This document shows positions 8,201-33,845 of a stretch of 33,845 bases of DNA, in pieces. Within the stretch, counting starts at the first letter, position 1, and each line of letters begins with the position of its first letter. Source of the DNA: a virus (taxonomy: Duplodnaviria > Caudoviricetes); IMG/VR virus record IMGVR_UViG_3300033076_000358, positions 1 to 33,845 of that record. The stretch is one strand, 5' to 3'. The notes beneath the pieces were generated by a model. It had not been told where the DNA came from. It did no database searches and saw only the letters and a list, made by a program, of their open reading frames with translations. Position numbers and translations under genes: made by a program.

Positions 8201-10323
8201 GCTCTAAGTTCTTTGTCACGGATAACACCGGCAGCCTGCTGTAGTAGTCCGTAGATGTCTCCACGGCTTAGTTTGAGGGTGTTTCTGCCTAGTGCTTTCG
8301 CTATGGCTTTGTCTTCTTCTCCACTCCACATGTCGAATGAGCGGGCGGCATATGGCTGTGCGGTTAGTGGGTTGTATCCTCGTTCGATAGCGTTTTCGAT
8401 TGCTGCAGCGTCGTTTCCTTCGCCTGCTAGGCGTCGTGCAGCCCATTCTAGACGGGATGCGAATAGCGACATGGAGATTCCAGACTTCTTTAAGAGGTCG
8501 CCTGTGATCTCTGAGGCTGGTAGTGCAAGGTTTCCGTCTGTTGAACGGCTCATTACTGAGCGTAGGCGTAGCCAGTCGTTGGCTGTGTTGTCTGCGTTCC
8601 AGACCATAGCCTTGTTTTTCTTTTGGAAGTCGCTCTGTTTACGCTGTAGGAACTTTACTTCTCTAACTTCATTCTTGCGTCCTACAGTTCCGCCACCTTT
8701 ACGTTTGGTTGGGGCTCCTTGGACTGGTGCGTCTTCGAGGGTTACTCGGCCGTTTCCGCTTTTTACTTGACGGAAGCCAATTGGCTGTGAGGTTGCTTCG
8801 TCTAGGTAGCGTAGGTAGTCTGCGTTGGCTGGATCTGCTACGAAAGCGTCCCAGGCTGAGTAGCCTCCGTCACCGTCTTGACGGCGGACTGCACTGATAA
8901 TGTCGTCAGATAGTTTCTGAATTGGTGCTGCAGCGGCTAGTTGTGCACGTCCCTTGGTTACAGCGAAGATTCTAGATGGGCCTTCTAGGGCCATTGTAGC
9001 CTCGTCAGCGGCTCTTGTAGCACTTAGTGGGGCAGACTTGGTTCCTGCTGCTTCTGCAGCGTTCTTGAGGGTCTCAGCGGACTGTTTGACCATTGTCTTG
9101 CGACGGGCTACCACATTCGATAGGGTGCGTCCTAGTCGTGCTGCTTCCTCAGCGAGGAACTGGTCAGCCTGTTCCTTAGAGATCTTCTTGTCGGCTTCTA
9201 GGGCCGCCTTCTTTAACGACAGTTGCTGTTCGAGCATGTCGCTACCGAGCCGTAATACTTCTTCGTCTGGGAGGTCTGTGCCTGCTTTTGCGAGGGTTTC
9301 GTCTAGGTTCCTAGCGTATGCTCTAGCGGCAGACTTTGAAGCCCAACGGTCGAAAGCAGCCTGGTGTGCTTCCTGAAAACCTCTACCCATTTCCTTAAGG
9401 ATATATACGTATGGGTTGGTGTTTTCGATAGTGTATTTTGGTGCAGATAGTTCAATCTTGTTTCCTGCACGAGTGCGTAGGAATTTACCGTCAACTTTTT
9501 CTAGCGGTGCATAGAATGGGCGAGGCTTGTTGATTACTTTTCCTGCTGCTGCTGCTTTGTCGGCTGCAGTAACATAGCGGGCTGCAGTGGCTACACCACG
9601 TCCAGCACCTTTAATTGCGGCACCCGCACCTACAGTTAGGTAGGTTGTTGGGTCTAGACCTGCGTCCAGGATGAATCCTAGAGTGTTTTTCGCAGTCCAT
9701 CCGCCGAATGGGGTGTCTAGGTATACGTCTTCGCTGACTTTAGGGATTCCTGCCCCTAGCCATTCTTCGCTGTTGATTAGTTGGTCGAAGCGGTCGTAGG
9801 TTTTTCCGCCAGTTAGTTTGGCAATTTCGTTTTTAGCGTCTGGAACGGCTGAGTAGGCTAAACCTTCGAAGGTTCCGATTGGTGCAGCCCACATACCTTT
9901 CCAGAATGCTCCGCCTAGGGCTCCCCAGTCGTCTGACTGTAGACCGTCTGATAGGGCTTTGTTTGCGTCTGCAACAGCAGATATAGTGTTTGCGGTGGTG
10001 TTTAGAATTGCACGGCCTAAACCTGTGAACATGCGGAAAGCCCAGCCTACTGCACCCCATTCGCTGTAGTCGGCTTTCTCGTTTAGAGGCTTGGTTGGTC
10101 CGCTAAGGGCGTCGCCGTAACTGCTGCTTGAAGATAGTGGGTTGCTGCTTGCTGTTCTTTGTCCTGGACCGATTAGGCGGGCTGCTTTATTAGAGTAGTT
10201 AGCCCATGCTCCACCAGTGAGTTTGTCGGCTTTCGCTGATCGGGTTGCGATACGTGCGTTCGACATGTCACGAACAGATGATGAAATCTTGTTCGCCTTC
10301 GATAGGTAAGAGTTGTCTGCCAT
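2212..10323 (-). CDS. Very large internal virion / DNA-ejection protein (2703 aa)
   Basis: Last gene of a podovirus-type structural operon. Ala/Lys/Glu-rich helical composition, hydrophobic N-terminal patches (LDPTTYLTVGAG) and C-terminal PKNWIQN and FVLFFTW segments reminiscent of podoviral ejection proteins. No catalytic motif recognised. Confidence 0.65.
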   Translation of the reverse strand: MADNSYLSKANKISSSVRDMSNARIATRSAKADKLTGGAWANYSNKAARLIGPGQRTASSNPLSSSSSYGDALSGPTKPLNEKADYSEWGAVGWAFRMFTGLGRAILNTTANTISAVADANKALSDGLQSDDWGALGGAFWKGMWAAPIGTFEGLAYSAVPDAKNEIAKLTGGKTYDRFDQLINSEEWLGAGIPKVSEDVYLDTPFGGWTAKNTLGFILDAGLDPTTYLTVGAGAAIKGAGRGVATAARYVTAADKAAAAGKVINKPRPFYAPLEKVDGKFLRTRAGNKIELSAPKYTIENTNPYVYILKEMGRGFQEAHQAAFDRWASKSAARAYARNLDETLAKAGTDLPDEEVLRLGSDMLEQQLSLKKAALEADKKISKEQADQFLAEEAARLGRTLSNVVARRKTMVKQSAETLKNAAEAAGTKSAPLSATRAADEATMALEGPSRIFAVTKGRAQLAAAAPIQKLSDDIISAVRRQDGDGGYSAWDAFVADPANADYLRYLDEATSQPIGFRQVKSGNGRVTLEDAPVQGAPTKRKGGGTVGRKNEVREVKFLQRKQSDFQKKNKAMVWNADNTANDWLRLRSVMSRSTDGNLALPASEITGDLLKKSGISMSLFASRLEWAARRLAGEGNDAAAIENAIERGYNPLTAQPYAARSFDMWSGEEDKAIAKALGRNTLKLSRGDIYGLLQQAAGVIRDKELRALLRRLGLRSESLSAIEGRVALDNIAEDLTAARMSQIVAAKKAIAKAIEKKTIKINIKGKPVTLTAAMVTKLTDNQVIDALDAGLRRNKLRSELVSQAELDLAIESVEKLAQAKLQAIMQLSRHGINVVGDTSNGSALLTAVTGTYNRKLGPVLRKGLDRIFTETKVGEAAKLKSEFLAYAWAASSHTRDSLDGGVFAEALDALAAKAGIPPLASFKTAESRAEALKLLAQTDEWTAYVTPPLLHSLEVRTRTIGKATGSSRAAVVIKNEEKRLTKKVEELLKYLEDDIYESKIALGKEYSRNKIILPYPRGKEADTSYLSIIIDEGRAVTGKDLVSEEFPEGIAAADRALKTNYISATKEVIDMFKNLPANPGMVPAVIKNGVAVAAAEGEKATHLIVDAVINSAKKKKYNALSKTERFFYDRLIAARYERAQNAAIEAIARKEAIRSIPLSLDKKALLSFIQREIKANSTSVARVEANINARFWHAYDMRIAETAADLRAIETPLHKFVVKSDGGVLDLVKEQKSFDRLVKKIEAAVEKDYPNLAKVEWDGEMSVLKVIETGNPNLFISWLRNKEILTVLDQDEWEIALRHMKNMTKLGGGGSRWRNYRELLDSYVDRKNSTLLPGQINPATGRPVPTEEQVATVLEALGVKDADKMLSKAEILKRSDILGLIRSAKKHISEEELKQAQMNDMFSNELFAAGDDIKAMSDALPAPEITVDQTLHMLTSAVNTLEEAGESWVVDIADLSAGRAFGTFTDMPGYIAKEEGTAVRPVANLVYEDFAGRMQRANVDKETAKTLPKKDQVFIKPNFDTYNLYTAWKEIIFQLENIAEGRKLAKNSPAWREFMTVYTKKVLQVRDLYFNARGIYPSSTINLSKGELANLAKITGKFGDEGLTKAEIEKLGKHAVYLTETDFMDVFGPVMSKEFFFTGRLDSLPITSMLPAARLLIIGMSALKEGMWFEADIISRLKGEMIDAMENAIRKIDRGKTEKGIKIKSLMNDEATLFNTRVKIETLVDHLLREDVADQLYRNHVARGGYAYKRLQYEAGVVTEPIFKGLFQLLDSKFTSDGMNIKAVEDAGRALNEAAGIVTNDPRVELIAKMDFGARIGARLQPHQAIIIKEIQKVEDLSAEAKSIQELQQGASEALDPILFQNMMFTNTMELINKNADDDLIYEFAVNLHAEKGTILKNLRMLGFLDRGLRMFASYGMDEVRHLADPIVMNTKTVTSEFAETVAKHAYAMKEKFGSFEERTGRNLSAEAFAAFQKMPDEVAQKAFDAMKRLEEIADAKASGLIEGMTKEEYSNLLDDVKLLDDYIPAEDSWLRDAAADLWILHSRMLAGAEKNFLTQATAYETRLFNKFLRDIGQGMGREITEIVDTKSGKAITNRKDAEIALKAGTATVQPKKVRDSYALQSIKDPEGFANQWREWEISNPLDLYVGLHTAGRKTLEVRIMGAELEKFGFPVESISKEEARAADLVEIVPPKNIPHGAEMLHYLPKGYYFPRALASEIQSLAKFMGDVKHLEANGTLEKALLKMQWIQDIAKKSMTNYTPKNWIQNTLGGVVANSLFLGVNSPLAYARGAEVMRSVGQAVDELGLDRKSIEGMLAKLDRRTAKGQIEFNPANDPLTSTSYTTKVQNKSVNIPVKTWWDMYTKYAGVVPHSQAGGVDALREAGMLGKVKKPNLYQRGDAFLARNAGTRDDWLRIVAFINIIQKGNWNSLEEAAAYAGKQVNRVHPQVQGLSTVNQKWTRNFVLFFTWRAKMLGTVLMDVLDKPGVANNILRFQQTMGEAQGAEYSGFGDFDPNNQLRPWYMRGNMSPTILNDQGRMASFTVSNPITDLLGQGSWLQGLRFNNQDPIEQQIGQVGYQTFDNFVTSSNPLLISLYTDWVDKKETQGGSPLLQNGRFTNKTVGLLVEDALSKIGWGPQHIMAAMLFPDIAKKASEDGMNKDALNRKHWIAINNWLSGMKLTELDTIEIRKKAVQEIIARRKDQAGL

Positions 10324-10342: not shown

Positions 10343-10351
10343 ATTATAGCA
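10343..10351 (-). promoter_or_regulatory. Extended -10 promoter TGCTATAAT for the 2703-aa gene
   Basis: TGn+TATAAT in a 41-bp intergenic gap, upstream of SD AGGAAGG. Confidence 0.6.
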
Positions 10352-14983: not shown

Positions 14984-16237
14984 TTAGATACCTGAAGCGA
15001 TACCCGAGATTACACCGTGAGTGTTACGACGGTAGGTCGACAACTCCGAGTAACTACGTAGGTAAGCGATGAAGGCGTCACGACGTGGAACCTGCTTCCA
15101 CTTCGAACCGTCTTCGTCGATCCATTCCCAACCACGGTTAGTGTTTAGGTTGATCTTCTTCTGGTTTACAAACCACATCTTGCCTTCTGGGGCGTCAAAG
15201 TCAGCCTTGAAAGGTAGGTCACCGAACTCGGTTGCGAAACCAAGACCACGGTTACCACCCTCTAGGTCAACCTTGTTGACATAACGGCGGCGGTCCTGAA
15301 GGGCCTTCCAGTAACCGTTCCATGAACCGTGGTCGGTCCAGATAACGTCTGGCTTGTCGCCGTCCTCAGCAATCGAGGTCACCATAGCGATCATGTCCTC
15401 TTCGGTGATCTGCTGTGGGGTTCCCGATACAGAGATGTCCATCGTGTGGGCAGCCCATGCTGGGGTGGTGGCTGGGTCGATTCCGTGCAATGCAGTGCTG
15501 TCACTGATTAGTGCACCGAAGCCCGACCATTCCTTCTTCCAGTTGTTTACCTGGCTCGACGAGGTCGAGTTCGAGCGAACAACAGCCGAACCAACGGTAA
15601 CGCTCGATGCAAGGTTGCGGTCGAAGGTTACTACCTTAGTGGTCTTGTTGATTGCGGTGATGGTTACGTAACCACCAGTGTGGGCAGGGGATGGGACAGC
15701 GTTGCCTAGCGAAGCAGCGAGTAGAACGTCTACACGCATACCTACGTGAAGATACTTCACGCTGTCTAGTGCTAGGGTTGCTGCAGCAGAAGAGTTAGCG
15801 GTCTTGACCTTTGCTAGGGTTCCAGTGCCGTCACCGAAGATCTGGCGGTTCTGGTCCTTAGCGATGTCGTCACGGATACGCTCGATTTCTTCCGAGGTAA
15901 CGTCAGCGAAGGTCTGGTAGTTCTGCGAAGCCTGTGCCATAACCTGTCCGGTTAGACGCACGGAACCGTAGAACGACTTTAGACCAGTCTGGCCGTCGAC
16001 ATACTGCTGGTTGCCAGCCTCTGGTAGGTCTTCGTCCTCACCACGGGCACCAATACCAGTGTTACGACCTACGTGTGCAACGAACTTGACACCTAGACCA
16101 CCAACCTGAGTAATGTTGCGGGCAGTTGACTTAATACCATCCAGTGCTGGAGTTGCGTTGTTAATCTGCTCGTTAATGTCACCGTAAACATCCTTAAGGA
16201 TGACGTTGGCAATAGCGAGGTTCTGTCCTTCGGACAT
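14984..16237 (-). CDS. Major capsid protein
   Basis: ~417 aa, follows the scaffold gene. LKDVY, E.EDLPEAG.Q, RQIFGDGTG and R.NTHG.I motifs typical of HK97-fold podoviral MCPs. Start placed at the ATG after SD AGGAG. Confidence 0.88.
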   Translation of the reverse strand: MSEGQNLAIANVILKDVYGDINEQINNATPALDGIKSTARNITQVGGLGVKFVAHVGRNTGIGARGEDEDLPEAGNQQYVDGQTGLKSFYGSVRLTGQVMAQASQNYQTFADVTSEEIERIRDDIAKDQNRQIFGDGTGTLAKVKTANSSAAATLALDSVKYLHVGMRVDVLLAASLGNAVPSPAHTGGYVTITAINKTTKVVTFDRNLASSVTVGSAVVRSNSTSSSQVNNWKKEWSGFGALISDSTALHGIDPATTPAWAAHTMDISVSGTPQQITEEDMIAMVTSIAEDGDKPDVIWTDHGSWNGYWKALQDRRRYVNKVDLEGGNRGLGFATEFGDLPFKADFDAPEGKMWFVNQKKINLNTNRGWEWIDEDGSKWKQVPRRDAFIAYLRSYSELSTYRRNTHGVISGIASGI

Positions 16238-16318: not shown

Positions 16319-16327
16319 AGTGTATCA
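16319..16327 (-). promoter_or_regulatory. Extended -10 promoter TGATACACT for the capsid gene
   Basis: TGn+TAnnnT directly after the scaffold stop, giving a ~75-nt leader. Confidence 0.55.
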
Positions 16328-22158: not shown

Positions 22159-22381
22159 TCAGTTACACTTATCTGCTGATACTGATACTGGTGCTACCGC
22201 TATCCATCATACGCTGGGTCCTAAGCCTTTTCAAGCATCTCCAGGTAGCCATAAGCATGATGGTAAGGATTCTGTTCGGCTAGATTTTAATGATCTTTTG
22301 AATAGTTGGATGAACATTGACGGCGGAGAACCTGGCACTGTTTATACTCCTATTCCTCACCTTGATGGAGGCGGCGTTTAA
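22130..22381 (+). CDS. Small minor tail protein
   Basis: D.D....AIHHTLG....QASPG.H.HDG motif typical of actinophage fibre-anchor proteins; DGG repeats. Confidence 0.65.
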
Positions 22382-24423
22382 TGGCTGTTGTTATTCAGAT
22401 TCGTCGTGGAACTGCGGCACAGTGGACTTCCGCTAACCCTACGCTTGCTCAGGGTGAGATGGGTGTTGAAACTGACACTCTTAAAGTAAAGATTGGTAAC
22501 GGATCTACTGCTTGGACTAGCCTGCCATATTTTACGCAGGGGTTGAAGGGTGACACTGGTGCTACTGGTGCTACTGGTGCTACTGGACCTGCGGGACCTA
22601 CTGGTGCAACAGGACCTCAGGGTCCTCAGGGTATTCAAGGTGATACTGGCCCTGCAGGCCCTACAGGTCCACAGGGCCCTCAAGGTGTTAAGGGTGACAC
22701 TGGTTTAACTGGTCCTACTGGTGCTACTGGCCCGCAGGGACCTCAAGGTTTAAAGGGCGACACTGGAGATACTGGACCGACTGGACCTACAGGAGCGACA
22801 GGTCCGCAGGGTCCTCAAGGTATTCAAGGCGATACTGGCCCCGCTGGTCCACAAGGACCGCAGGGTCTCACTGGTAACACTGGTCCTGCAGGTCCAACTG
22901 GTCCGACTGGACCTACGGGAGCGACAGGCCCAGGAGTCCAAGCAGGCGGAACTACAGGACAAATCCTAGCGAAAGCATCTGCTACTGACTATGACACTCA
23001 ATGGGTGAACACTCCGCCTCCTACGCTTTACGCCACTTCACCTATCGTTTACGATAGCGGAACTTCTACGTTCAGTTTCGATGGTGTAGCATTCGCTAAA
23101 ACTACTATTCCTATCTTGGATTATGGTAAGAACGATACTGGTGCTTCTGTAAGCAAGGGTCAGGTTGTTTATGTTTCTGGATCTAACGGAACAAATGTTC
23201 TCTGGTCACTAGCCGATGCGGATAGTGAGGCGACTTCGTCTAAGACTATTGGTTTGCTTTACCAGGATCTTGCCGTGAATGGTTTGGGTTGGGTTGTCAC
23301 TAACGGTATTTTGTCTGGTATCGATACTTCGGCTGCTTCAGCGGCGGGTGTGAGTGTCTGGTTGTCTTCGACTGCTGGTGGTGTTGTTTATGGTGCTCCG
23401 CCTGCTGAACCTGCTCAAAGTGTCTATTTAGGTGTTGTTACCCGTAAGCATGCAACTAACGGTGAGATCTTGGTTAAGGTTCAGAACGGTTATGAACTTG
23501 ACGAACTACATGACGTATTTGTTGGTTCGGCTGCATCGGGTGACTTACTGAAGTTTAATGGCACTGGCTGGGTTAATGCTGCTCAGTCTACTTTGGCTAT
23601 TGCTCCATCGCAGGTTACTGGCACTGCTGTTATTACGACTGATAGCCGTTTGAGTGATTCGAGAACACCTACTGCTCACGCATCTACGCATGGTTCGGCT
23701 GGTTCAGATCCTATTACTATTGCCCAGTCACAGGTTACTAACCTGACTACTGATTTGGCTGGTAAGGCAGCGACTTCACACACTCACGCTATCGCTGACA
23801 CGACTGGTTTGCAAACCGCTTTGGATGCTAAAGCACCTTTACAGGACCCTTTGTTTACTAGAGTATCTTCGTCTGAGGGTGGACAGATTAATCTTCAATC
23901 TGGCAACGCATCTGGAACTACATGGGCTATAGATAGTTATGGTTCTACTACTACTCCAGATATGCGTATTATTGAGGGTGCAAATGTTCGTGCGACTTTT
24001 GCTGCTGGTGGAAATGTCTCTATTGGTGGAACAGTAACTGCTGGATCGGTAGTTAAGTCAGGTGGAACTTCATCCCAGTTCTTGAAGGCTGATGGAAGCG
24101 TAGATTCTTCAACCTATGCTATTGCTGGCTCTAACGGCGTCCCATTAGCAATGTCTGCTGGATATGTAACAATTAACCCAACAGCAAACACTAAAACTAA
24201 CGTGACCGTTACGTTCCCTACTGGAAGATTCAGCCAAACACCTGCAGTAATGTGTATGCCTAACTCATCCGTAACTGGAACAACTATCGCTTATTATGGA
24301 ATGCAAGACCCATCAGCATCCAGCGTTATCCTCTACGTAAACAGGGCTAACACTACTGCTACTGTCATGTATTACACTGCAACACAAATGACATCATCTC
24401 CATACTCAGGAACGGCACAATAA
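22381..24423 (+). CDS. Tail fibre / receptor-binding protein with collagen-like region
   Basis: Mtd-N/hyaluronidase-like N-terminus [29 protein letters not shown]; Gly-X-Y run; HASTH and HTHAIAD knots; C-terminal VTFP..F...P.V domain. Confidence 0.85.
22540..22935 (+). repeat. Collagen-like Gly-X-Y repeat (~44 triplets)
   Basis: Continuous GATGPTGPQG-type triplets. Confidence 0.9.
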
Positions 24424-24589: not shown

Positions 24590-25254
24590 TCTTCTAAGAC
24601 TTTAGGGATGCTTCCGTGGCGGCGAGCCTCATCACGTCTACGCTTATCCTCAGCATGAATCATCTCATCTGGAGCAAGAGTCTTCGGATCATGAGGCAAG
24701 CATTCATGGTCGATAGGTAAGAACGGGACACTAGCATCTACACGACCATCAGGTGTTGTAGGACGGTCACCATAGTATGGGTCGTTGGTTGCATGCCAAC
24801 GGTTGTGGCATTCAGCACAGATACGGTGAATGTTACCTTCAACATTCATCATCGTGTTCTTGTCAGGTCCGTGGTGGATAGCCTCAGCAGGATGTCCTGG
24901 ACACCCAATGATTGGTTTCACACCGCCACCGGCATTCTTTAGCCAAGCCCACTCACAAACCATACCTGGCTTGATAGGGAACTTTTTGGCTGCTTCTTTA
25001 CGGCCTGTAGAGATCGGGTCAGCATACTGGTCAAGCGGTTTACTGCCTGTATAGCCGTCAAAGTAGGCTTCAAGTTCAGGCTTATCGTCCAGCATAGATG
25101 CGGCTGCTTCGTATGCGTCTGATGGTTCCAGGGAGAAGGCTCCCTCGCAGCAACATTCCATGTCGTCTGCGAGGTTGCCGTTCCACATGTCTGCACATTC
25201 GTCGTGAAAACCTGCCCTGCAAGCAAGGCATACGTCTTTAGTAGTGGTCTTCAT
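24586..25254 (-). CDS. HNH endonuclease with additional Cys/His cluster
   Basis: IHHGPDKN...N.HRICAECHNRWH; N-terminal CLAC...H..C...CCC. Start placed at MKTTTK. Confidence 0.7.
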   Translation of the reverse strand: MKTTTKDVCLACRAGFHDECADMWNGNLADDMECCCEGAFSLEPSDAYEAAASMLDDKPELEAYFDGYTGSKPLDQYADPISTGRKEAAKKFPIKPGMVCEWAWLKNAGGGVKPIIGCPGHPAEAIHHGPDKNTMMNVEGNIHRICAECHNRWHATNDPYYGDRPTTPDGRVDASVPFLPIDHECLPHDPKTLAPDEMIHAEDKRRRDEARRHGSIPKVLED

Positions 25255-27733
25255 ATTCCGTTCCGCCAAGGTTGTATAGATATATACCAGAATACATCCT
25301 GCGACCGCCACCGCCACGTTGTGGTGAGATTGGCATACGCATGCGTAGTTCTCGTAGGAATGAGGTCATCGACAGGGCTGTCTCTCCGTTGATAGAACAC
25401 CACTTGTTGTAAGTAGATAGTAGTTCTTGTGCAGACACCATGCTTGCAGGGTTCGCTACTACACAGTCTTCTACGAACTTGGTGATGTGGTCTTCTTCGA
25501 AACGGTATTCGTTCGTAGCAACCTTTACAGCATCTGGTTCGGTAATACCTTGTGCGAGGACACGTCGTGCACCCTCAATCATCCAAGCCAACACTCCAGA
25601 GCCTTCAATTTTGACGATGTCGTCTGATAGGCCTTGCTTCTGTAGGGCTTCAGGAACTTGGTAACTGAAGTCAATCTTGCGGAGTCGACGCCAGAAACCC
25701 GAACCACCAGAACGCACTGATGGTAGGTGGTTTACTGCCAGGAATAGGGTGTGTGATGGTTTGAAGTCGAAGAAGTCCTTATACATTTTGCGGGCAGAGA
25801 TAGTGTCTCCACCTGTAAGCATTTTGATACGGGACTCGTTGAACTTTCCGTCTGGTCTTGTCTCTGATGCTACAGCGAAACGCACACCACGCAGGTTAGC
25901 GATTTCTGTCGCATGCTGTGTAGTGTTGGTGTCTAGTAGGAAGTTTTCAGGCATTGACCTAGCATAGGTTCCTAGAATCTTGGCTGCAATTTCGAGCAGG
26001 GTGGATTTACCGTTGGCACCAACACCTACAAGCACTGGTAGAACATGCCATCTGACTTCACCGATTAGGGCGATGCCCAACAGTTCTTGAATGTAGTTGA
26101 TTCTATCTTCATCAGTGATAACTAATTTTAAGAAGTCATCCCACATTGGTGTGGCTGTAGGTGTTGGTGCAACAGTAGTTTGCATAGTGTTGTAGTCCTG
26201 TGTAGGATCTGCATCACGCAGCACTCCCGTTTCCAAGTTAACTATGCCGTTAGGGGTGCATAGTTCTAGCGGGTTCTTGTCTAGTTCATGCGGTAACACG
26301 ATAATGTCTGGCACTGATTGTGCTAACGCTACTGCGGATGTAATCGCTGAACGAGATAAAGATTTTTTCGCCCAATCCATCCCTGCCTTTGAAGCATCAA
26401 GTGCTCCAAAGGACAGGGCGGATTCTGCAGCAAGTCTCTCGATTGACTTGGCAGTGTCTGGCACGTATGTGCTGTTCTCCCAACGATACCAGCCAAGGTC
26501 TGGGACGAAAATGTATTTGCCTTTCGCAAAGTCTGCTAAACGCTCCGCATTAGCCACGTCAGTATATTTGAACGCATCCATGGGCAAACCGATTGGAGCC
26601 AGTTCAGGAGCGAGTGCTAGTGAGCCATCGGTAGTATTCGACACGGATGCTTGTCCTTTTGGGAGGTCTGGAACTGCAGACAGATGCAGTTTGTGAACAT
26701 GGTTACGAACTTCTGACGCTAGTTTGGCTTCGCTATAGGTTGATACCATTTGCTTAGCCCATTTGAATGCGGTCTGAACTTCGCCAGGGTGTGGCTTACG
26801 TTTCTCACCATCAGTTAGCAGGTTAAGGAATTTGGCTTCTAGAAGTTGTGCCGCCTGATTATAACCCTCTTCAGTAAAGCAACCGTAGCGGACGGAAGAG
26901 TATAGTTTGATGGCTTGGGCAACAAGCCATGGGTGTCTGGCTTTCGGGTTGGCTTTATCGATAGAGTCCAAAAGTTGTGCTGTCCAAGCACAGTTCTCCG
27001 ACGCAACACGCCATTCTTCAGGGGGAGCAACAACAACAAATTCATCGACAGTCGTGTTGTCTGATAGAAAGCCGTGCGATTCGAGTGCTTCCACAACTTG
27101 CGAAAGTTCGACAGGATACGTGAAATCATTGAACTCAACCTTTACATCGATAGGGTTGACCGGATCTTTGTGGTTGATAGTGCCTGGTGCACGTAACACT
27201 CGTGGAAGGTCCGATACGTTATCAACTTTACCACCATAGAGTTCGGCTACACGTTGAACGAGTTGACCGAATCGGCGGGATACGCCAGCAACCATGCTGC
27301 GGTTCATGTCGTTGATTTCGCCGTCTTCTACAGCCCAGTATGGTTGTAGACCGTGTCCAGAGTGGACGATGGCACAAGGGTTTACGCCAATAATGGCGGA
27401 GATAGATTCGATAACACCCATAGCGTTCTCGTATGAGTTGATGCCTGAGTCTTTATAGTCTAGGTCTGCCCATAGAGCGTTTAGGCGAGTGATGTCGTTA
27501 ACGTCGCCTCGAGTGTTAGCGGAAGTTATTTTAGATTCGTCTACCGAGTTCACCATCGTGTAAACGTTCATACCGTTAGCGGTTAGGGTTTGAGCAAAAA
27601 TGTCTGCGTTTGCTAATGGTAGAGATTTAGAAGTCCAGGGGTTCTTTGGACCAAAGTAGCAGACTGTGATCTTATCGGTTTCAGTCTTGCCGAGCCTTGT
27701 GAACAGGCCAAGAATCGGCTTATCGATTTCCAT
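25238..27733 (-). CDS. Primase (AEP/RepB-like) fused to D5/P4-type SF3 helicase
   Basis: LWADLD, HSGHGLQPYW, RVLRAPGT.N.K; TD..NAERL; Walker A GVGANGKST; LTGGD.I.AR; FWRR. Confidence 0.92.
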   Translation of the reverse strand: MEIDKPILGLFTRLGKTETDKITVCYFGPKNPWTSKSLPLANADIFAQTLTANGMNVYTMVNSVDESKITSANTRGDVNDITRLNALWADLDYKDSGINSYENAMGVIESISAIIGVNPCAIVHSGHGLQPYWAVEDGEINDMNRSMVAGVSRRFGQLVQRVAELYGGKVDNVSDLPRVLRAPGTINHKDPVNPIDVKVEFNDFTYPVELSQVVEALESHGFLSDNTTVDEFVVVAPPEEWRVASENCAWTAQLLDSIDKANPKARHPWLVAQAIKLYSSVRYGCFTEEGYNQAAQLLEAKFLNLLTDGEKRKPHPGEVQTAFKWAKQMVSTYSEAKLASEVRNHVHKLHLSAVPDLPKGQASVSNTTDGSLALAPELAPIGLPMDAFKYTDVANAERLADFAKGKYIFVPDLGWYRWENSTYVPDTAKSIERLAAESALSFGALDASKAGMDWAKKSLSRSAITSAVALAQSVPDIIVLPHELDKNPLELCTPNGIVNLETGVLRDADPTQDYNTMQTTVAPTPTATPMWDDFLKLVITDEDRINYIQELLGIALIGEVRWHVLPVLVGVGANGKSTLLEIAAKILGTYARSMPENFLLDTNTTQHATEIANLRGVRFAVASETRPDGKFNESRIKMLTGGDTISARKMYKDFFDFKPSHTLFLAVNHLPSVRSGGSGFWRRLRKIDFSYQVPEALQKQGLSDDIVKIEGSGVLAWMIEGARRVLAQGITEPDAVKVATNEYRFEEDHITKFVEDCVVANPASMVSAQELLSTYNKWCSINGETALSMTSFLRELRMRMPISPQRGGGGRRMYSGIYLYNLGGTEYEDHY

Positions 27734-27756
27734 AATTATTCACTCCTTAGTGAATG

Positions 27757-27800
27757 TGAAGACCCCGATAGGAAAGGAGACGAAACTATCGGGGTCTCCA
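27757..27800 (-). other. 15-bp RNA hairpin with anti-SD loop TTTCGTCTCCTTTC between ssb and primase
   Basis: 12-bp perfect core agaccccgatag/ctatcggggtct, extended by a G-U pair on the - strand. Confidence 0.8.
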
Positions 27801-27802
27801 TC

Positions 27803-27811
27803 ATTGTAACA
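27803..27811 (-). promoter_or_regulatory. Extended -10 TGTTACAAT
   Basis: Predicted start site ~27797 coincides with the 5' arm of the hairpin. Confidence 0.55.
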
Positions 27812-27814
27812 CGA

Positions 27815-28387
27815 TTAAATCGTAACGATAGCCTTAACCTGGTCTACAGTGAGGCCAGTGGCTAGAGCGATCTGGTCAATACCTACACCCGACTGGGATA
27901 GGGAGTTGACTAGGTCAACCTTGTCTGCAGGAACACCAGCAGTAGCGACAGCAACACCAGCAGCCGCAGGGGCTTCAGCAGGTGCAGCAGGGGTGCCACC
28001 GAACTGGTTAGCGAAGTAGTCACGAGCCAACTTAGCGTCCGATTCGGTGAACGGAACTAGGATGAATGGTGCGGACTGACCTGGCTTTGAAGTGCCTCGA
28101 CCTAGACGACCTAGGACAGGCTTGTTCGAGCCGACAGATGGCTTAAGGGTTGAGATTAGTGCACCCTGGAAGAACAACACGTTGTCGTGTTCTTCAACAC
28201 CGTTTGCACCGTCAAGAACAACTACACGTGCTGCAATAGCGTCGCTGTCTCCGTAGTCGGTCTTGATGCCCTGACGGTATTCGGTAGGCCAGACAAGAAC
28301 CAAGTTGCCCTGGTAGTCGGCTGCACGGAACTTAGATGGTGAGGCAGGCTGTGAGAAACTGTCCTCGAAATAAGGCTGATTTGCCAT
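27815..28387 (-). CDS. Putative single-stranded DNA-binding protein with C-terminal HTH-like tail
   Basis: Beta-rich core (LVLVWPTEY, VLGRLGRG..K.GQ.APF.L) like actinophage SSBs; replication context. Confidence 0.6.
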   Translation of the reverse strand: MANQPYFEDSFSQPASPSKFRAADYQGNLVLVWPTEYRQGIKTDYGDSDAIAARVVVLDGANGVEEHDNVLFFQGALISTLKPSVGSNKPVLGRLGRGTSKPGQSAPFILVPFTESDAKLARDYFANQFGGTPAAPAEAPAAAGVAVATAGVPADKVDLVNSLSQSGVGIDQIALATGLTVDQVKAIVTI

Positions 28388-28410
28388 GGTGATCGTCTCC
28401 TAAACGATTT

Positions 28411-29163
28411 TTACTTGGAATTGGGTTGTGTAAACAAGTCGTCGACATATACTTCGACAGGCTCATCAACACTGGGGTATTCGGAACAAGAGAAGCAATC
28501 TTTGCTCGTGTCGAGCGTTCGTAAATATGCGTTCAAGTCTTCCGTAGAAGTAACCTTAGCATATATTTCGTTCGCTCGTGCAAGTGCATCGAGAGCAACT
28601 TGTTCATCGAATGGCTCGCTCCAGAAAATTCCTGCAGCGAGAGATATATTATTGCGTGGATAAAACTTAACCGCAACCTCATTGACGTTGTAGCCAGCGT
28701 TTTTCCAACCAAGCCCATACAAGTGGGCTTGGATTCTGTAAGTGTCACCAGGACCCTTGCGGGTCACTGATGCTAGTTTAGTGGTGCCGACCAACTTGTG
28801 GTCGATAACAGTGCCAGTAGATGTATCAAAGAGATCACAAGAACCCTGAATAACATTCGGACCGATTGCACCTACTGTGAGTCGGGTCTCGACGAGCCAG
28901 CGGGGTGTCTCTCCATCGACATTTGCCGATCTAAAGAATCCTTCCAGCATTTCATGCATGGACGTGCCGAGGAATGGTAGCCATGGTAAATCGTTGATAC
29001 CTTGTGGTTTATTCCTCTCCACACCTGCCAACTTGCGAGCCAGGCATCGGACACAATCCGTTCCAATCTCTGACGGCCCGATAAGCGTTTGCTGCGACCT
29101 TGGTTGGTTGGCAATGGCATCAAATATCACTGCTTCCATCGCTTGATTCACTGGATGATTCAT
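28411..29163 (-). CDS. Cas4-like PD-(D/E)XK exonuclease
   Basis: IGPSEIG..C.R, GT..H, E, GSCDLFD, DHK, Q.HLYG and terminal CFSC. Start after SD AAGGAG. Confidence 0.85.
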   Translation of the reverse strand: MNHPVNQAMEAVIFDAIANQPRSQQTLIGPSEIGTDCVRCLARKLAGVERNKPQGINDLPWLPFLGTSMHEMLEGFFRSANVDGETPRWLVETRLTVGAIGPNVIQGSCDLFDTSTGTVIDHKLVGTTKLASVTRKGPGDTYRIQAHLYGLGWKNAGYNVNEVAVKFYPRNNISLAAGIFWSEPFDEQVALDALARANEIYAKVTSTEDLNAYLRTLDTSKDCFSCSEYPSVDEPVEVYVDDLFTQPNSK

Positions 29164-29536
29164 TGTTCTCCTTGTTAATAAAGTTCTCAATATCGACTAT
29201 TGAAAGATCCACATCATTGCGAACTTTGGAAATCTCTTCCTTGAACGCAATAAGGTTAATGTCTTGCATCAGTTGCGAAGTCCACAGTTTGAATCCCAAG
29301 TGGGCCACGTCATACATCTTATCTTGCACCACCGACATTAAGAGCAGAGAAGAGAACACCATCATAGCATTCGCCTTCATCAAAACCTTTAACTCTTCAG
29401 TTTCTTCTTTACCGTCGACCGGCATGAGTTGTGTATGTAGTTCGCCAACATCAAGCATTTCAAGACAGAGAGCAGACAAAAAGTCTAGAGCCGCCTCATC
29501 AGATTGCAACTGTGGCTGTTTATTTTCTTCGGACAT
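29120..29536 (-). CDS. Hypothetical protein
   Basis: SD AAGGAG; abuts the helicase stop. Confidence 0.7.
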   Translation of the reverse strand: MSEENKQPQLQSDEAALDFLSALCLEMLDVGELHTQLMPVDGKEETEELKVLMKANAMMVFSSLLLMSVVQDKMYDVAHLGFKLWTSQLMQDINLIAFKEEISKVRNDVDLSIVDIENFINKENNESSSESSDGSSDI

Positions 29537-31030
29537 TTAACTCCTTAATGATGCAAGCACTTGTCTTGCATACTCGACTCCACGAGAACCATCTAACAGT
29601 TCTCGCTGTATTTTGAATCTATCGCCATTAGTTTCAGCGATAGCCAAATCAATTGTTTCATTAGACATCAGCCACCAAATCGTCATACGATGTTGACGAG
29701 ATAAGCGGTCGATACGGTCTTCAACCTGTTCAGCATCATCAGATGAATACGGGACATCAAAGAACACCATGTCATCAGCCGCATCTAAGTCGATACCTAC
29801 ACCCATAGTCATAGATAGTAGCACGACACGCAGTTTAGAATCATGGTCTTGGAACTCGGCCTGAATCCTGGAACGATCCGTCTCCTTCACAGAACCGTCC
29901 AGGATTTCAGCCCGAACACCACGCTTAGCCAACTCTCTCTGCAGCCAAGCAAGAGTAGCCCGAAAAGACGAGGCTACTACAACCTTAGATGGTTGGGGTG
30001 ACACAAAGTCAGGATCCATATATCCACGCTCTTCAAGCCATTCCTCTAACCAATCAAACTTACTAGATGAGAAGGATTCGCCAATACCTTCAGCCTGCCA
30101 ACCAGAAGTAATCGCTAGTTGACGGGCACGTAACGCATACACTGCAGGCGATAAAGGATTAGCAGTGCCTTGTGACGCTAAATGTTCACGCCAATAGTCA
30201 AAATATGCGGTGCGTTGAGGCTTATTCATGTCCAGGATGACGTTAATGTATTGTTTAGCCGGACGACCAGCCTGAATCTCAGCCTTAGTTCGTCTAATAA
30301 GATACAAAGCATCCCTAGAAATCCATTCGAGGGGTGCTCGCAACGATACAGGAATAATCAAGTCTTTTGTGCGGCCGCCAGGAAGCCTGATAGTGCGAGC
30401 CTCAAGGTTAAAGTTAGTAGCCAACCAATGCTGATGCGACTTATACACTTCAGGGAACAAGAACTTAAGTGTGCCATACCTGTTCTCTAGTTTAGAGCGG
30501 TCAGGTGTTCCAGATACGGCAAGCCTAAATGCTTTCTCCGCTAAAGTTATTAACGATAATCCTCGCCAGAATTGTGTGTATTGGTATCGCTGATCAGTAG
30601 CAGTAGGTAATACACGATGAGACTCATCGATGACAATATGAGTGAATGTAGGTAGAAAGAGATTAGGGACACGTCGTTTGCCACCTGGGGCCACACTAAG
30701 AGCGTCGTGATTAGCGACGATAATGGCGGGAGCGACAACACTTTCAATACGTTCATTCTTTTTCTCCGCACTTCCTGACGTCAAGTCATAAATGTTTACA
30801 TGCTTAGGCACGTATTTTTCGATATGGCCCTGCAGCCATGTAGTTTTAGCAGGAAACTTAGGGGCAAGGATGAGAGTAATACCATCATTAAACGCTCCAG
30901 AACCCTCAAGGGCAGCCAAACTCATTAAAGTCTTACCAGAACCAGGCTGATCGGCTAAAAGGGTTCTACGCTTAGCCACCATAAAATCGACAGCCGTCTT
31001 TTGCGGCTCCCACAACATTTCATAAATCAT
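29537..31030 (-). CDS. SNF2-family (SF2) helicase
   Basis: LADQPGSGKT, IDESH, SGTP, RRTK, G.GIDL and Q.EDRIDR motifs. Confidence 0.9.
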   Translation of the reverse strand: MIYEMLWEPQKTAVDFMVAKRRTLLADQPGSGKTLMSLAALEGSGAFNDGITLILAPKFPAKTTWLQGHIEKYVPKHVNIYDLTSGSAEKKNERIESVVAPAIIVANHDALSVAPGGKRRVPNLFLPTFTHIVIDESHRVLPTATDQRYQYTQFWRGLSLITLAEKAFRLAVSGTPDRSKLENRYGTLKFLFPEVYKSHQHWLATNFNLEARTIRLPGGRTKDLIIPVSLRAPLEWISRDALYLIRRTKAEIQAGRPAKQYINVILDMNKPQRTAYFDYWREHLASQGTANPLSPAVYALRARQLAITSGWQAEGIGESFSSSKFDWLEEWLEERGYMDPDFVSPQPSKVVVASSFRATLAWLQRELAKRGVRAEILDGSVKETDRSRIQAEFQDHDSKLRVVLLSMTMGVGIDLDAADDMVFFDVPYSSDDAEQVEDRIDRLSRQHRMTIWWLMSNETIDLAIAETNGDRFKIQRELLDGSRGVEYARQVLASLRS

Positions 31031-33617: not shown

Positions 33618-33845
33618 AAAAAAGTGTGCGACCCGACGCAGTGATAGGGGGAGGACACTACATCGGGTCACACACTTATACAGGCAAGCAGAAATCACAA
33701 AAACATCTTGCCTGTTTGTGTTACCAAGCGACATCACAAGCCGAAAGGATTACCTGTGATACTCGATAACACTCGTTAGGGAACCAACCTAACGAACACT
33801 ATAACCCCTGCCAGACGGAGTAACTGGGGGCGGTAGGAATCTGGC
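33618..33845 (-). ncRNA. Putative structured ncRNA: at least five tandem hairpins with pyrimidine-rich/anti-SD loops, ending in a terminator
   Basis: Hairpins at 33622-33677, 33680-33715, 33718-33772, 33773-33795 and 33810-33845. Mispairs are G-U on the - strand. U6 tract overlapping the 3' end of the last stem (33618-33623). Confidence 0.7.

Follow-up and report, generated by a model that had tools for sequence, protein, structure and literature searches.

To our knowledge, the means by which phages dependent on host promoters lower the expression of their early genes are largely open, and we know of few phage RNAs that regulate their own mRNAs in trans. RsaE is, like 6C, a base-pairing sRNA with an anti-Shine-Dalgarno (anti-SD) loop. 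The account of the 6C (B11) sRNA of Actinobacteria in PMC6486639 is of an Hfq-free RNA that exposes pyrimidine-rich loops for purine-rich sites on several mRNA targets; in mycobacteria, its C-rich loops bind mRNAs without chaperones. In the icaR mRNA of S. aureus (PMC3868564), and in the long-range anti-SD folding described in PMC12697547, initiation is blocked when an anti-SD motif 3′ of the coding sequence base-pairs with the SD of its own mRNA. According to the latter report, anti-SD sequences more than 500 nt downstream reduce protein by 44% in B. subtilis, an effect that is mostly or entirely lost when the anti-RBS 8mers lie between pairing segments or hairpins of the 3′ UTR. Among phages, the c4 antisense RNA of P1 and P7 is described as directing loop sequences to the RBS region of its own mRNA in trans (PMC12197685). 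In the early-mRNA shut-off by T4 RegB, GGAG followed by an A-rich 3′ context (consensus GGAGRAYARAA) marks the early RBSs, and late ones escape (PMC3014915). The start-associated sequences (SAS) of cluster K mycobacteriophages give a class of non-structural genes RBS bases that are not read by 16S rRNA (PMC3203893).

Several of these features have a counterpart, observed or predicted, in a small hairpin of a phage whose host would belong to the same phylum as that of 6C. Sequence comparison shows that this element is real and conserved; it is apparently undescribed, and we regard it as a variant of the anti-SD-loop regulators. We found no description of it in the literature, although large screens for structured RNA (e.g. 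PMC5737381) may list it among the motifs of their supplements.

The window, by which we mean the whole stretch of DNA that was analysed, is a virus record of 33,845 bases with a completeness estimate of 79%. Judging by its gene set (WhiB, helicase, exonuclease, primase-D5 helicase, RusA-like, terminase, portal, capsid), it looks like an actinobacterial phage, and a close relative (L304) is carried by a contig in an Actinomycetota MAG. The element lies on the minus strand in the 81 nt that separate an ssb-like gene from a primase-helicase gene:

25238–27733, minus strand: primase/polymerase-D5 helicase, 831 aa (PHROG 2478, E 5e-200; Pfam D5_N)
27815–28387, minus strand: ssb-like gene, 190 aa, with a predicted OB-fold domain and a C-terminal helix-turn-helix-like part (PHROG 870; model pLDDT 84)
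28411–31030, minus strand: upstream early cassette of helicase, 138-aa protein of unknown function and exonuclease, whose RBSs are secondary candidate targets

The closest cultured relatives of the primase-helicase (Gordonia GMA4, Mycobacterium phages) are about 35–37% identical to it. The 190-aa gene had originally been taken for ssb, a name that no annotation carries. Its predicted fold is OB-like and nearest to the PRD1 SSB P12 (Foldseek E 0.014; Z 6.4, rmsd 3.6, 100 aligned), with other OB folds among the top matches, all at values below the confidence levels of these tools; PHROG 870 is a family of unknown function, and Pfam gave no SSB match for this gene. The resemblance is suggestive only, hence the label ssb-like, and DNA binding is a prediction. 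The C-terminal three-helix HTH-like part (residues 151–190; 27815–27940, minus strand) is shared by the proteins of the clade, and many distant homologues do not have it. On the opposite strand, a 680-aa ORF with collagen repeats that resembles a tail fibre gene (22381–24423, plus strand) is flanked by the primase block and the RusA-like/terminase block.

The element and its candidate partners comprise the following features:

27758–27799, minus strand: extended stem, a 14-bp hairpin in which the discriminator pairs with the linker
27761–27796, minus strand: core hairpin with an 11-bp stem (27786–27796 with 27761–27771)
27772–27785, minus strand: anti-SD loop UUUCGUCUCCUUUC, 13–15 nt in relatives, with GUCUCCUUU invariant
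27803–27811, minus strand: extended −10 promoter-like motif TGnTAnAnT of putative activity, without a consensus −35
27796, minus strand: predicted transcription start at the first base of the core stem, placed by its spacing from the −10
27743–27748, minus strand: primase SD AAGGAG, 10–16 nt past the core stem, a possible 6-bp pseudoknot partner
28393–28401, minus strand: RBS of the ssb-like gene, AGGAGACGA, the best predicted loop partner in the window (−15.5 kcal/mol, rank 1 of 37 genes)
28392–28408, minus strand: predicted local 7-bp hairpin over this RBS that uses the same spacer bases

The positions and sequence relations of the original prediction proved correct. On the minus strand, 27772–27785 reads TTTCGTCTCCTTTC and 27803–27811 reads TGTTACAAT; the 9-nt complement of the loop is present at 28393–28401, the 6-nt complement in the primase SD, and the extended −10 recurs in relatives. 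The tail-like part of the loop, CUCCUUUC, is identical to the 16S 3′ tail in all six 16S loci compared, which come from around an Actinomycetota MAG. Directly after the tail CUCCUUU, four of these six loci (L328, L330, L331, L332) carry CUAAGGAG, the same eight bases as in the primase SD context (27743–27750), possibly a coincidence.

The 111-nt region folds with −37 kcal/mol (z = −4.4; none of 200 shuffles was equally stable), and the predicted unpaired probability of the loop is 0.91–0.97. A second contig from the same study (run X2) spans the element with identical hairpin and RBS, and a covariance model found no second copy in the window. A scan for −35/−10 pairs did not list the motif at 27803–27811 among its promoters. 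Motifs of the same TGnTAnAnT type lie at 10343–10351 and 16319–16327 (minus strand), ahead of a 2703-aa ORF and the capsid gene. We rejected the hairpin as an intrinsic terminator: its loop is 13–15 nt long, and the nine nucleotides after the stem contain 4 U in the window and 3–6 in relatives; a 14-nt loop is outside what the terminator scan can list.

Relatives were collected by protein-seeded scans. Nine close viral loci, the 22 of 30 metagenome loci that are close (at least 68% identity), one close genome-contig locus and the window make up a set of 33 (19 of them distinct over the element), some of which are one phage filed twice. All 33 share the −10, the hairpin, the loop core and the primase AAGGAG in the same order, i.e. 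stop codon, TGnTAnAnT, 6–8 nt, 11-bp core stem, 13–15-nt loop with GUCUCCUUU, pyrimidine-rich linker of 10–16 nt, AAGGAG and primase start. In the nearest more distant locus (L033, 46% identity), the hairpin is different. A protein tree of 20 close and two outgroup loci resolves three lineages.

Within the 20 aligned rows, the T, G, T, A, A and T of the −10 motif are invariant. The core begins at +7 to +9 from the −10, and the base 7 nt past the motif, at or beside the stem base, is a purine in 18 of the 19 distinct variants, as expected of a transcription start site; the −10 and this purine would suit a discrete RNA with its own promoter, and the 3–6 U after the stem are few for a defined 3′ end. 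The core stem can pair in all of its 220 cells, with two-sided changes in four pairs, a one-sided G-U change in one and six invariant pairs, and the loop core never changes while 5 of the 11 stem pairs do. The locus thus has a conserved hairpin with an exposed, sequence-conserved C/U-rich loop, as in base-pairing sRNAs of the 6C/RsaE type. The extended stem varies by lineage: own arms pair with a mean of −9.75 kcal/mol versus −5.83 kcal/mol for swapped arms, and none of 20000 permutations was as good, a test from which relatedness was not removed, and the own arm is best or tied in only 7 of the 19 rows. Because the discriminator pairs with the linker, the extended stem would form only in read-through RNA from the upstream operon. 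A small hairpin over the primase SD of the window is not conserved among the relatives.

No Rfam family, including 6C, CopA and the alpha-operon RBS, matched the window at its gathering threshold; the best local scores were 19.7 of 60 bits for CopA and 16.6 of 38 for Alpha_RBS. PMC6486639 presents 6C as a host RNA that has a C-run in each of two loops; the present element differs in being a single phage hairpin ahead of a gene, and its CU loop has the ending of the 16S tail. Among cultured phages, blastn with the 91-nt element returned only alignments of at most 32% coverage at E of about 10 over the SD end, and the element is absent from all five cultured actinophage regions with an ssb-like homologue. 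An exact 24-nt search of viral contigs gave no match. A looser loop search gave 47 matches, with stems of at least 11 bp only in nine contigs of the close clade, and the covariance model, run on 96 sources, found one copy in each of these nine clade contigs; outside the clade its highest scores, 36.9 and 26.6 bits, fell on a pair of terminators from unrelated phages. The exact 14-mer of the loop occurs at 120 loci or more in 16 of 64 parts of the viral contigs; among the 96 distinct matches listed, 61 sit just before the complement of a start codon and one has a clean stem of at least 8 bp, so that most occurrences of the 14-mer in these contigs are ordinary RBSs read on the other strand.

With an anti-SD core and an AGGAG given, the extra 4-nt match has a chance of about 0.007 for a single specified gene and of about 0.08 when all 11 AGGAG genes of the window are considered, and because of these values, the match between loop and RBS in a single genome is modest evidence. 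It is not unique either: ORFs contain two further complements of loop bases (AAGGAGACG), each of 9 nt, at 29887 and 13210. Across contigs, the start of the ssb-like gene ranks 1/37 for loop pairing in the window, 2/55 in G001, 1/51 in G002, 3/56 in G003, 1/46 in G004, 1/40 in G005, 6/32 in G006 and 1/10 in G007, i.e. first in five of eight and in the top three in seven of eight. The match amounts to 8–11 bp in two of the three lineages; in the third, the loop is kept and the match has decayed to 6–9 bp with −8.5 to −11.7 kcal/mol. The partial loci L015/L016 and L021 have no pairing better than −10.

The ranks favour the ssb-like start as a loop partner, but the originally predicted dedicated pair of loop and ssb RBS is not supported: the co-variation looked for among relatives was not found in 17 distinct combinations, and loop and spacer vary largely independently. 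A locus's own loop variant is unsurpassed for its RBS in only 10 of the 17, with two of the seven misses differing at the last loop base only, and the commonest loop sequence pairs with the various spacers at −8.5 to −17.9 kcal/mol. Local hairpins over the RBS, which are predicted for the window as well as for L001 and for L002, the latter with an A-U pair swapped to U-A, can explain the conservation of the spacer in another way. After opening of local structure, the predicted net energy is about −10 in the window, −7 to −11 in the two matching lineages and −3 to −11 overall.

Other early genes upstream of the element are also candidate partners. The helicase start of the window scores −12.4 against the loop, and the exonuclease start of G006 scores −15.8 and ranks first of 32, with an RBS (GAGGAGACAAA) that pairs over 11 bp with the shorter loop of that genome. 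When the three loop bases 5′ of CUCC, which differ from the 16S tail, were compared with all 64 options, they ranked 1–4 in each of the seven genomes for upstream genes with GGAG, versus 9–60 for other GGAG genes. At the level of gene families, upstream early RBSs fit the loop better than others (p = 0.001; 38 vs 25 families), also without ssb (p = 0.002) or without the four-gene cassette (p = 0.004), in genomes that are related to each other and with start calls and an early/other split that are heuristic. There is no such difference in the window alone (p = 0.48) and a weak one in its lineage (p = 0.09). GGAG is followed by A in 35 of 59 early versus 10 of 35 other family/spacer types (p = 0.005), the position after GGAGA is not enriched (17/35 vs 5/10, p = 1), and GGAGAY gives p = 0.13; the early-class signal rests mainly on one base, the A after GGAG. 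A RegB-like protein could also cause such a GGAGA skew in early genes.

Among distant ssb-like loci, A follows GGAG in 32 of 119, a poor control for the GGAGA skew at their G+C content of 60–72%. Partners are found outside the early genes as well: in G001 the best one (−16.4) is a gene that belongs to the packaging/structural block, and three genomes have RusA-like starts with a good match to the loop. Near 33795 (minus strand) of G001:C1, a 175-aa gene before the portal gene has an RBS with a 12-bp match to the loop of G001 that its orthologues do not keep.

Membership in the cluster K SAS was considered and rejected: the bases after GGAG vary among early genes; in the MarkPhew control, CC follows GGAG in 18 of 22 starts. 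In PMC3203893 the SAS appears as a strict 13-bp repeat, unlike the shared part here, which is only GGAGA(Y) and statistical. A point of likeness is that in several genomes one copy of the SAS has the opposite orientation (PMC3203893). No inverted repeats were seen beside the early RBSs in a non-systematic look.

Which partner the loop serves can be read in several ways. The main rival to a multi-target reading, itself unlikely in our judgement, is control of the primase in cis, in which the loop CUCCUU would form an H-type pseudoknot with the AAGGAG that lies 10–16 nt past the stem and would keep translation of the primase-helicase low, possibly until opened by SSB or another factor. All six pairs are possible in 20 of 20 rows, every one of the 33 loci has AAGGAG, an A precedes AGGAG in 20 of 20 primase genes versus 68 of 126 other genes, and the linker length is held at 10–16 nt, with the partner close by on the same molecule. 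However, the six pairs of this second helix never vary, so that co-variation cannot show it, and the SD would be conserved anyway. The pairing stops at 6–7 bp (−7.4 to −10.4 kcal/mol) and never extends, the base after AAGGAG being U in 19 and C in 1 of 20 rows and never the extending A, and the invariant GU and UUU flanks of the loop would be unexplained unless they form triples. The originally predicted complement to the primase SD is invariant but short, and this SD is a weak partner; if the pseudoknot alone were real, it would still be a new translational operator on a replication gene. Strict looping as first proposed, in which the 3′ hairpin would fold back, icaR-like, only on the ssb RBS of the same mRNA and shut off completed ssb transcripts, we rate as improbable and below the pseudoknot. 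It draws on the first rank of the ssb-like start in five of eight contigs, on a long match held in two lineages whose proteins differ by about 30%, where one C-to-U change still leaves a G-U pair, and on an extended stem that could form only in read-through RNA; the conserved −10 at the hairpin base points instead to a separate transcript. Because co-variation is absent, the match has decayed in the third lineage and local hairpins offer another cause, the ssb-only model is not favoured. Specific complementarity to the SD region of the same mRNA is thus conserved only in part, and unlike the icaR motif as described in PMC3868564, this one sits in a hairpin loop with its own promoter-like signal and has a partner that is not fixed across relatives. 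It likewise differs from c4, presented in PMC12197685 as having one dedicated target and a co-varying specificity that underlies heteroimmunity, in that the loop is an SD complement and no co-variation is seen.

Two further readings do without a designated partner. The loop may be a generic mimic of the 16S tail or a pyrimidine-rich protein site that acts on host mRNAs, titrates a factor or recruits S1/30S and so helps primase translation, the match to ssb being a by-product of common RBS composition; we place this between the pseudoknot and strict looping. Its identity with the 16S tail, a 3′ UUC that fits neither the ssb nor the primase SD, a 14-mer whose complement is a common RBS, and the recurrence of the same loop in U-tract terminators of unrelated phages, where RBSs matching the core are few, all fit this view, but it does not predict the difference between early and other genes within a phage. 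Least probable of all, and very unlikely, is an ordinary terminator, 5′ stabiliser or single-stranded DNA hairpin (an origin or primase signal) whose loop has no pairing role. Hairpins right after distant ssb-like genes are common and mostly lack an anti-SD loop, and the site lies among replication genes in a region (24 to 30 kb) across which the G+C skew goes from mostly positive to negative. Yet a neutral loop would not remain fixed while the stem changes, the U content past the core is low, and the G-U pairs tolerated in the stem suit RNA better than DNA.

A multi-target anti-SD loop fits the data better than either single-target reading, ssb or primase. In our best model, to which we assign a probability of about 45%, early genes of the GGAGA type, most often the ssb-like gene, would be damped by a stable hairpin RNA with an anti-SD loop, which would work either in trans or as the 3′ end of the early mRNA. 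The −10 would start a transcript at the first stem base, so that the hairpin would form the 5′ end of the primase mRNA and could survive the decay of this mRNA as a stable RNA of 36–45 nt. In read-through early mRNA, a longer stem would form about 620 nt past the ssb RBS, close to the 3′ end, and the same loop could act in cis. Pairing of 7–11 bp would take up both SD and spacer and, with no chaperone needed, keep the 30S subunit from binding, and the primase and capsid SDs, being GGAGU, would largely escape. As the number of templates and the amount of hairpin RNA increase, early proteins of replication and recombination would likely come under negative feedback. The benefit of damping SSB while primase is made is not obvious.

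We counted in favour of this multi-target model the sequence itself, its conservation, the co-variation of the stem, the invariance of the loop and the better computed fit to upstream RBSs. Against it we counted the occurrence of the same promoter type ahead of structural genes (10351, 16327), the duplex energies, which ignore the strain of a helix within a 14-nt loop, and the shielding by flanking structure reported in PMC12697547. Because pseudoknots are excluded from whole-mRNA folding, such folding cannot reveal pairing of the loop.

In its boldest form, which we regard as doubtful, one 36-nt hairpin would do two jobs, as the 5′ end of the primase transcript and as an orthogonal anti-SD that reads the base after GGAG, silencing a class of early mRNAs and sparing primase and capsid; it would do with RNA what T4 RegB does, and unrelated phages would have arrived at a near-identical loop on their own. 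Unlike RegB, which PMC3014915 describes as a nuclease, an RNA loop would read the site. Such a one-base rule (GGAGA targeted, GGAGU spared) would be simple to test with reporters and, if true, would serve as a model for the SAS of mycobacteriophages, which lack an explanation; the surprise is tempered by bacterial precedents for the RNA mechanism.

Near distant ssb-like genes, most hairpins are plain, and related anti-SD loops occur near some; across unrelated phages, this looks like repeated use of a motif and not one family. Nearly the loop of the window is found in U-tract terminators of two unrelated phage groups (L109, L110 and L121, ~1490–1545; L116, ~1490–1545). Hairpins of 17–18 bp with a GUUCUCCU loop lie 45–80 nt past the ssb-like stop in L288, L323 (an Actinomyces MAG contig) and L274 and match their own ssb-like RBS poorly. 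Interrupted hairpins with the same 14-mer occur in L157, L163, L166, L225, L252, L178 and L228, several of them followed by a U-run and a GGAGGUGG RBS. In the distant actinophage L279, a 16-bp hairpin (15026–15075) has a loop that is a perfect 12-nt complement of the RBS at 8599–8610, 6.4 kb upstream on the same strand, which serves a small gene immediately following the ssb-like gene. L037 (3929–4030), L038 (3932–4040) and L039 (420–525) have, past a distant ssb-like gene, a TAnnnT hexamer and then a CCCC/GGGG hairpin, whose loop is CUCCCUC, with an SD downstream; two downstream RBSs in L037 are GAGGGAG, the exact complement of that loop.
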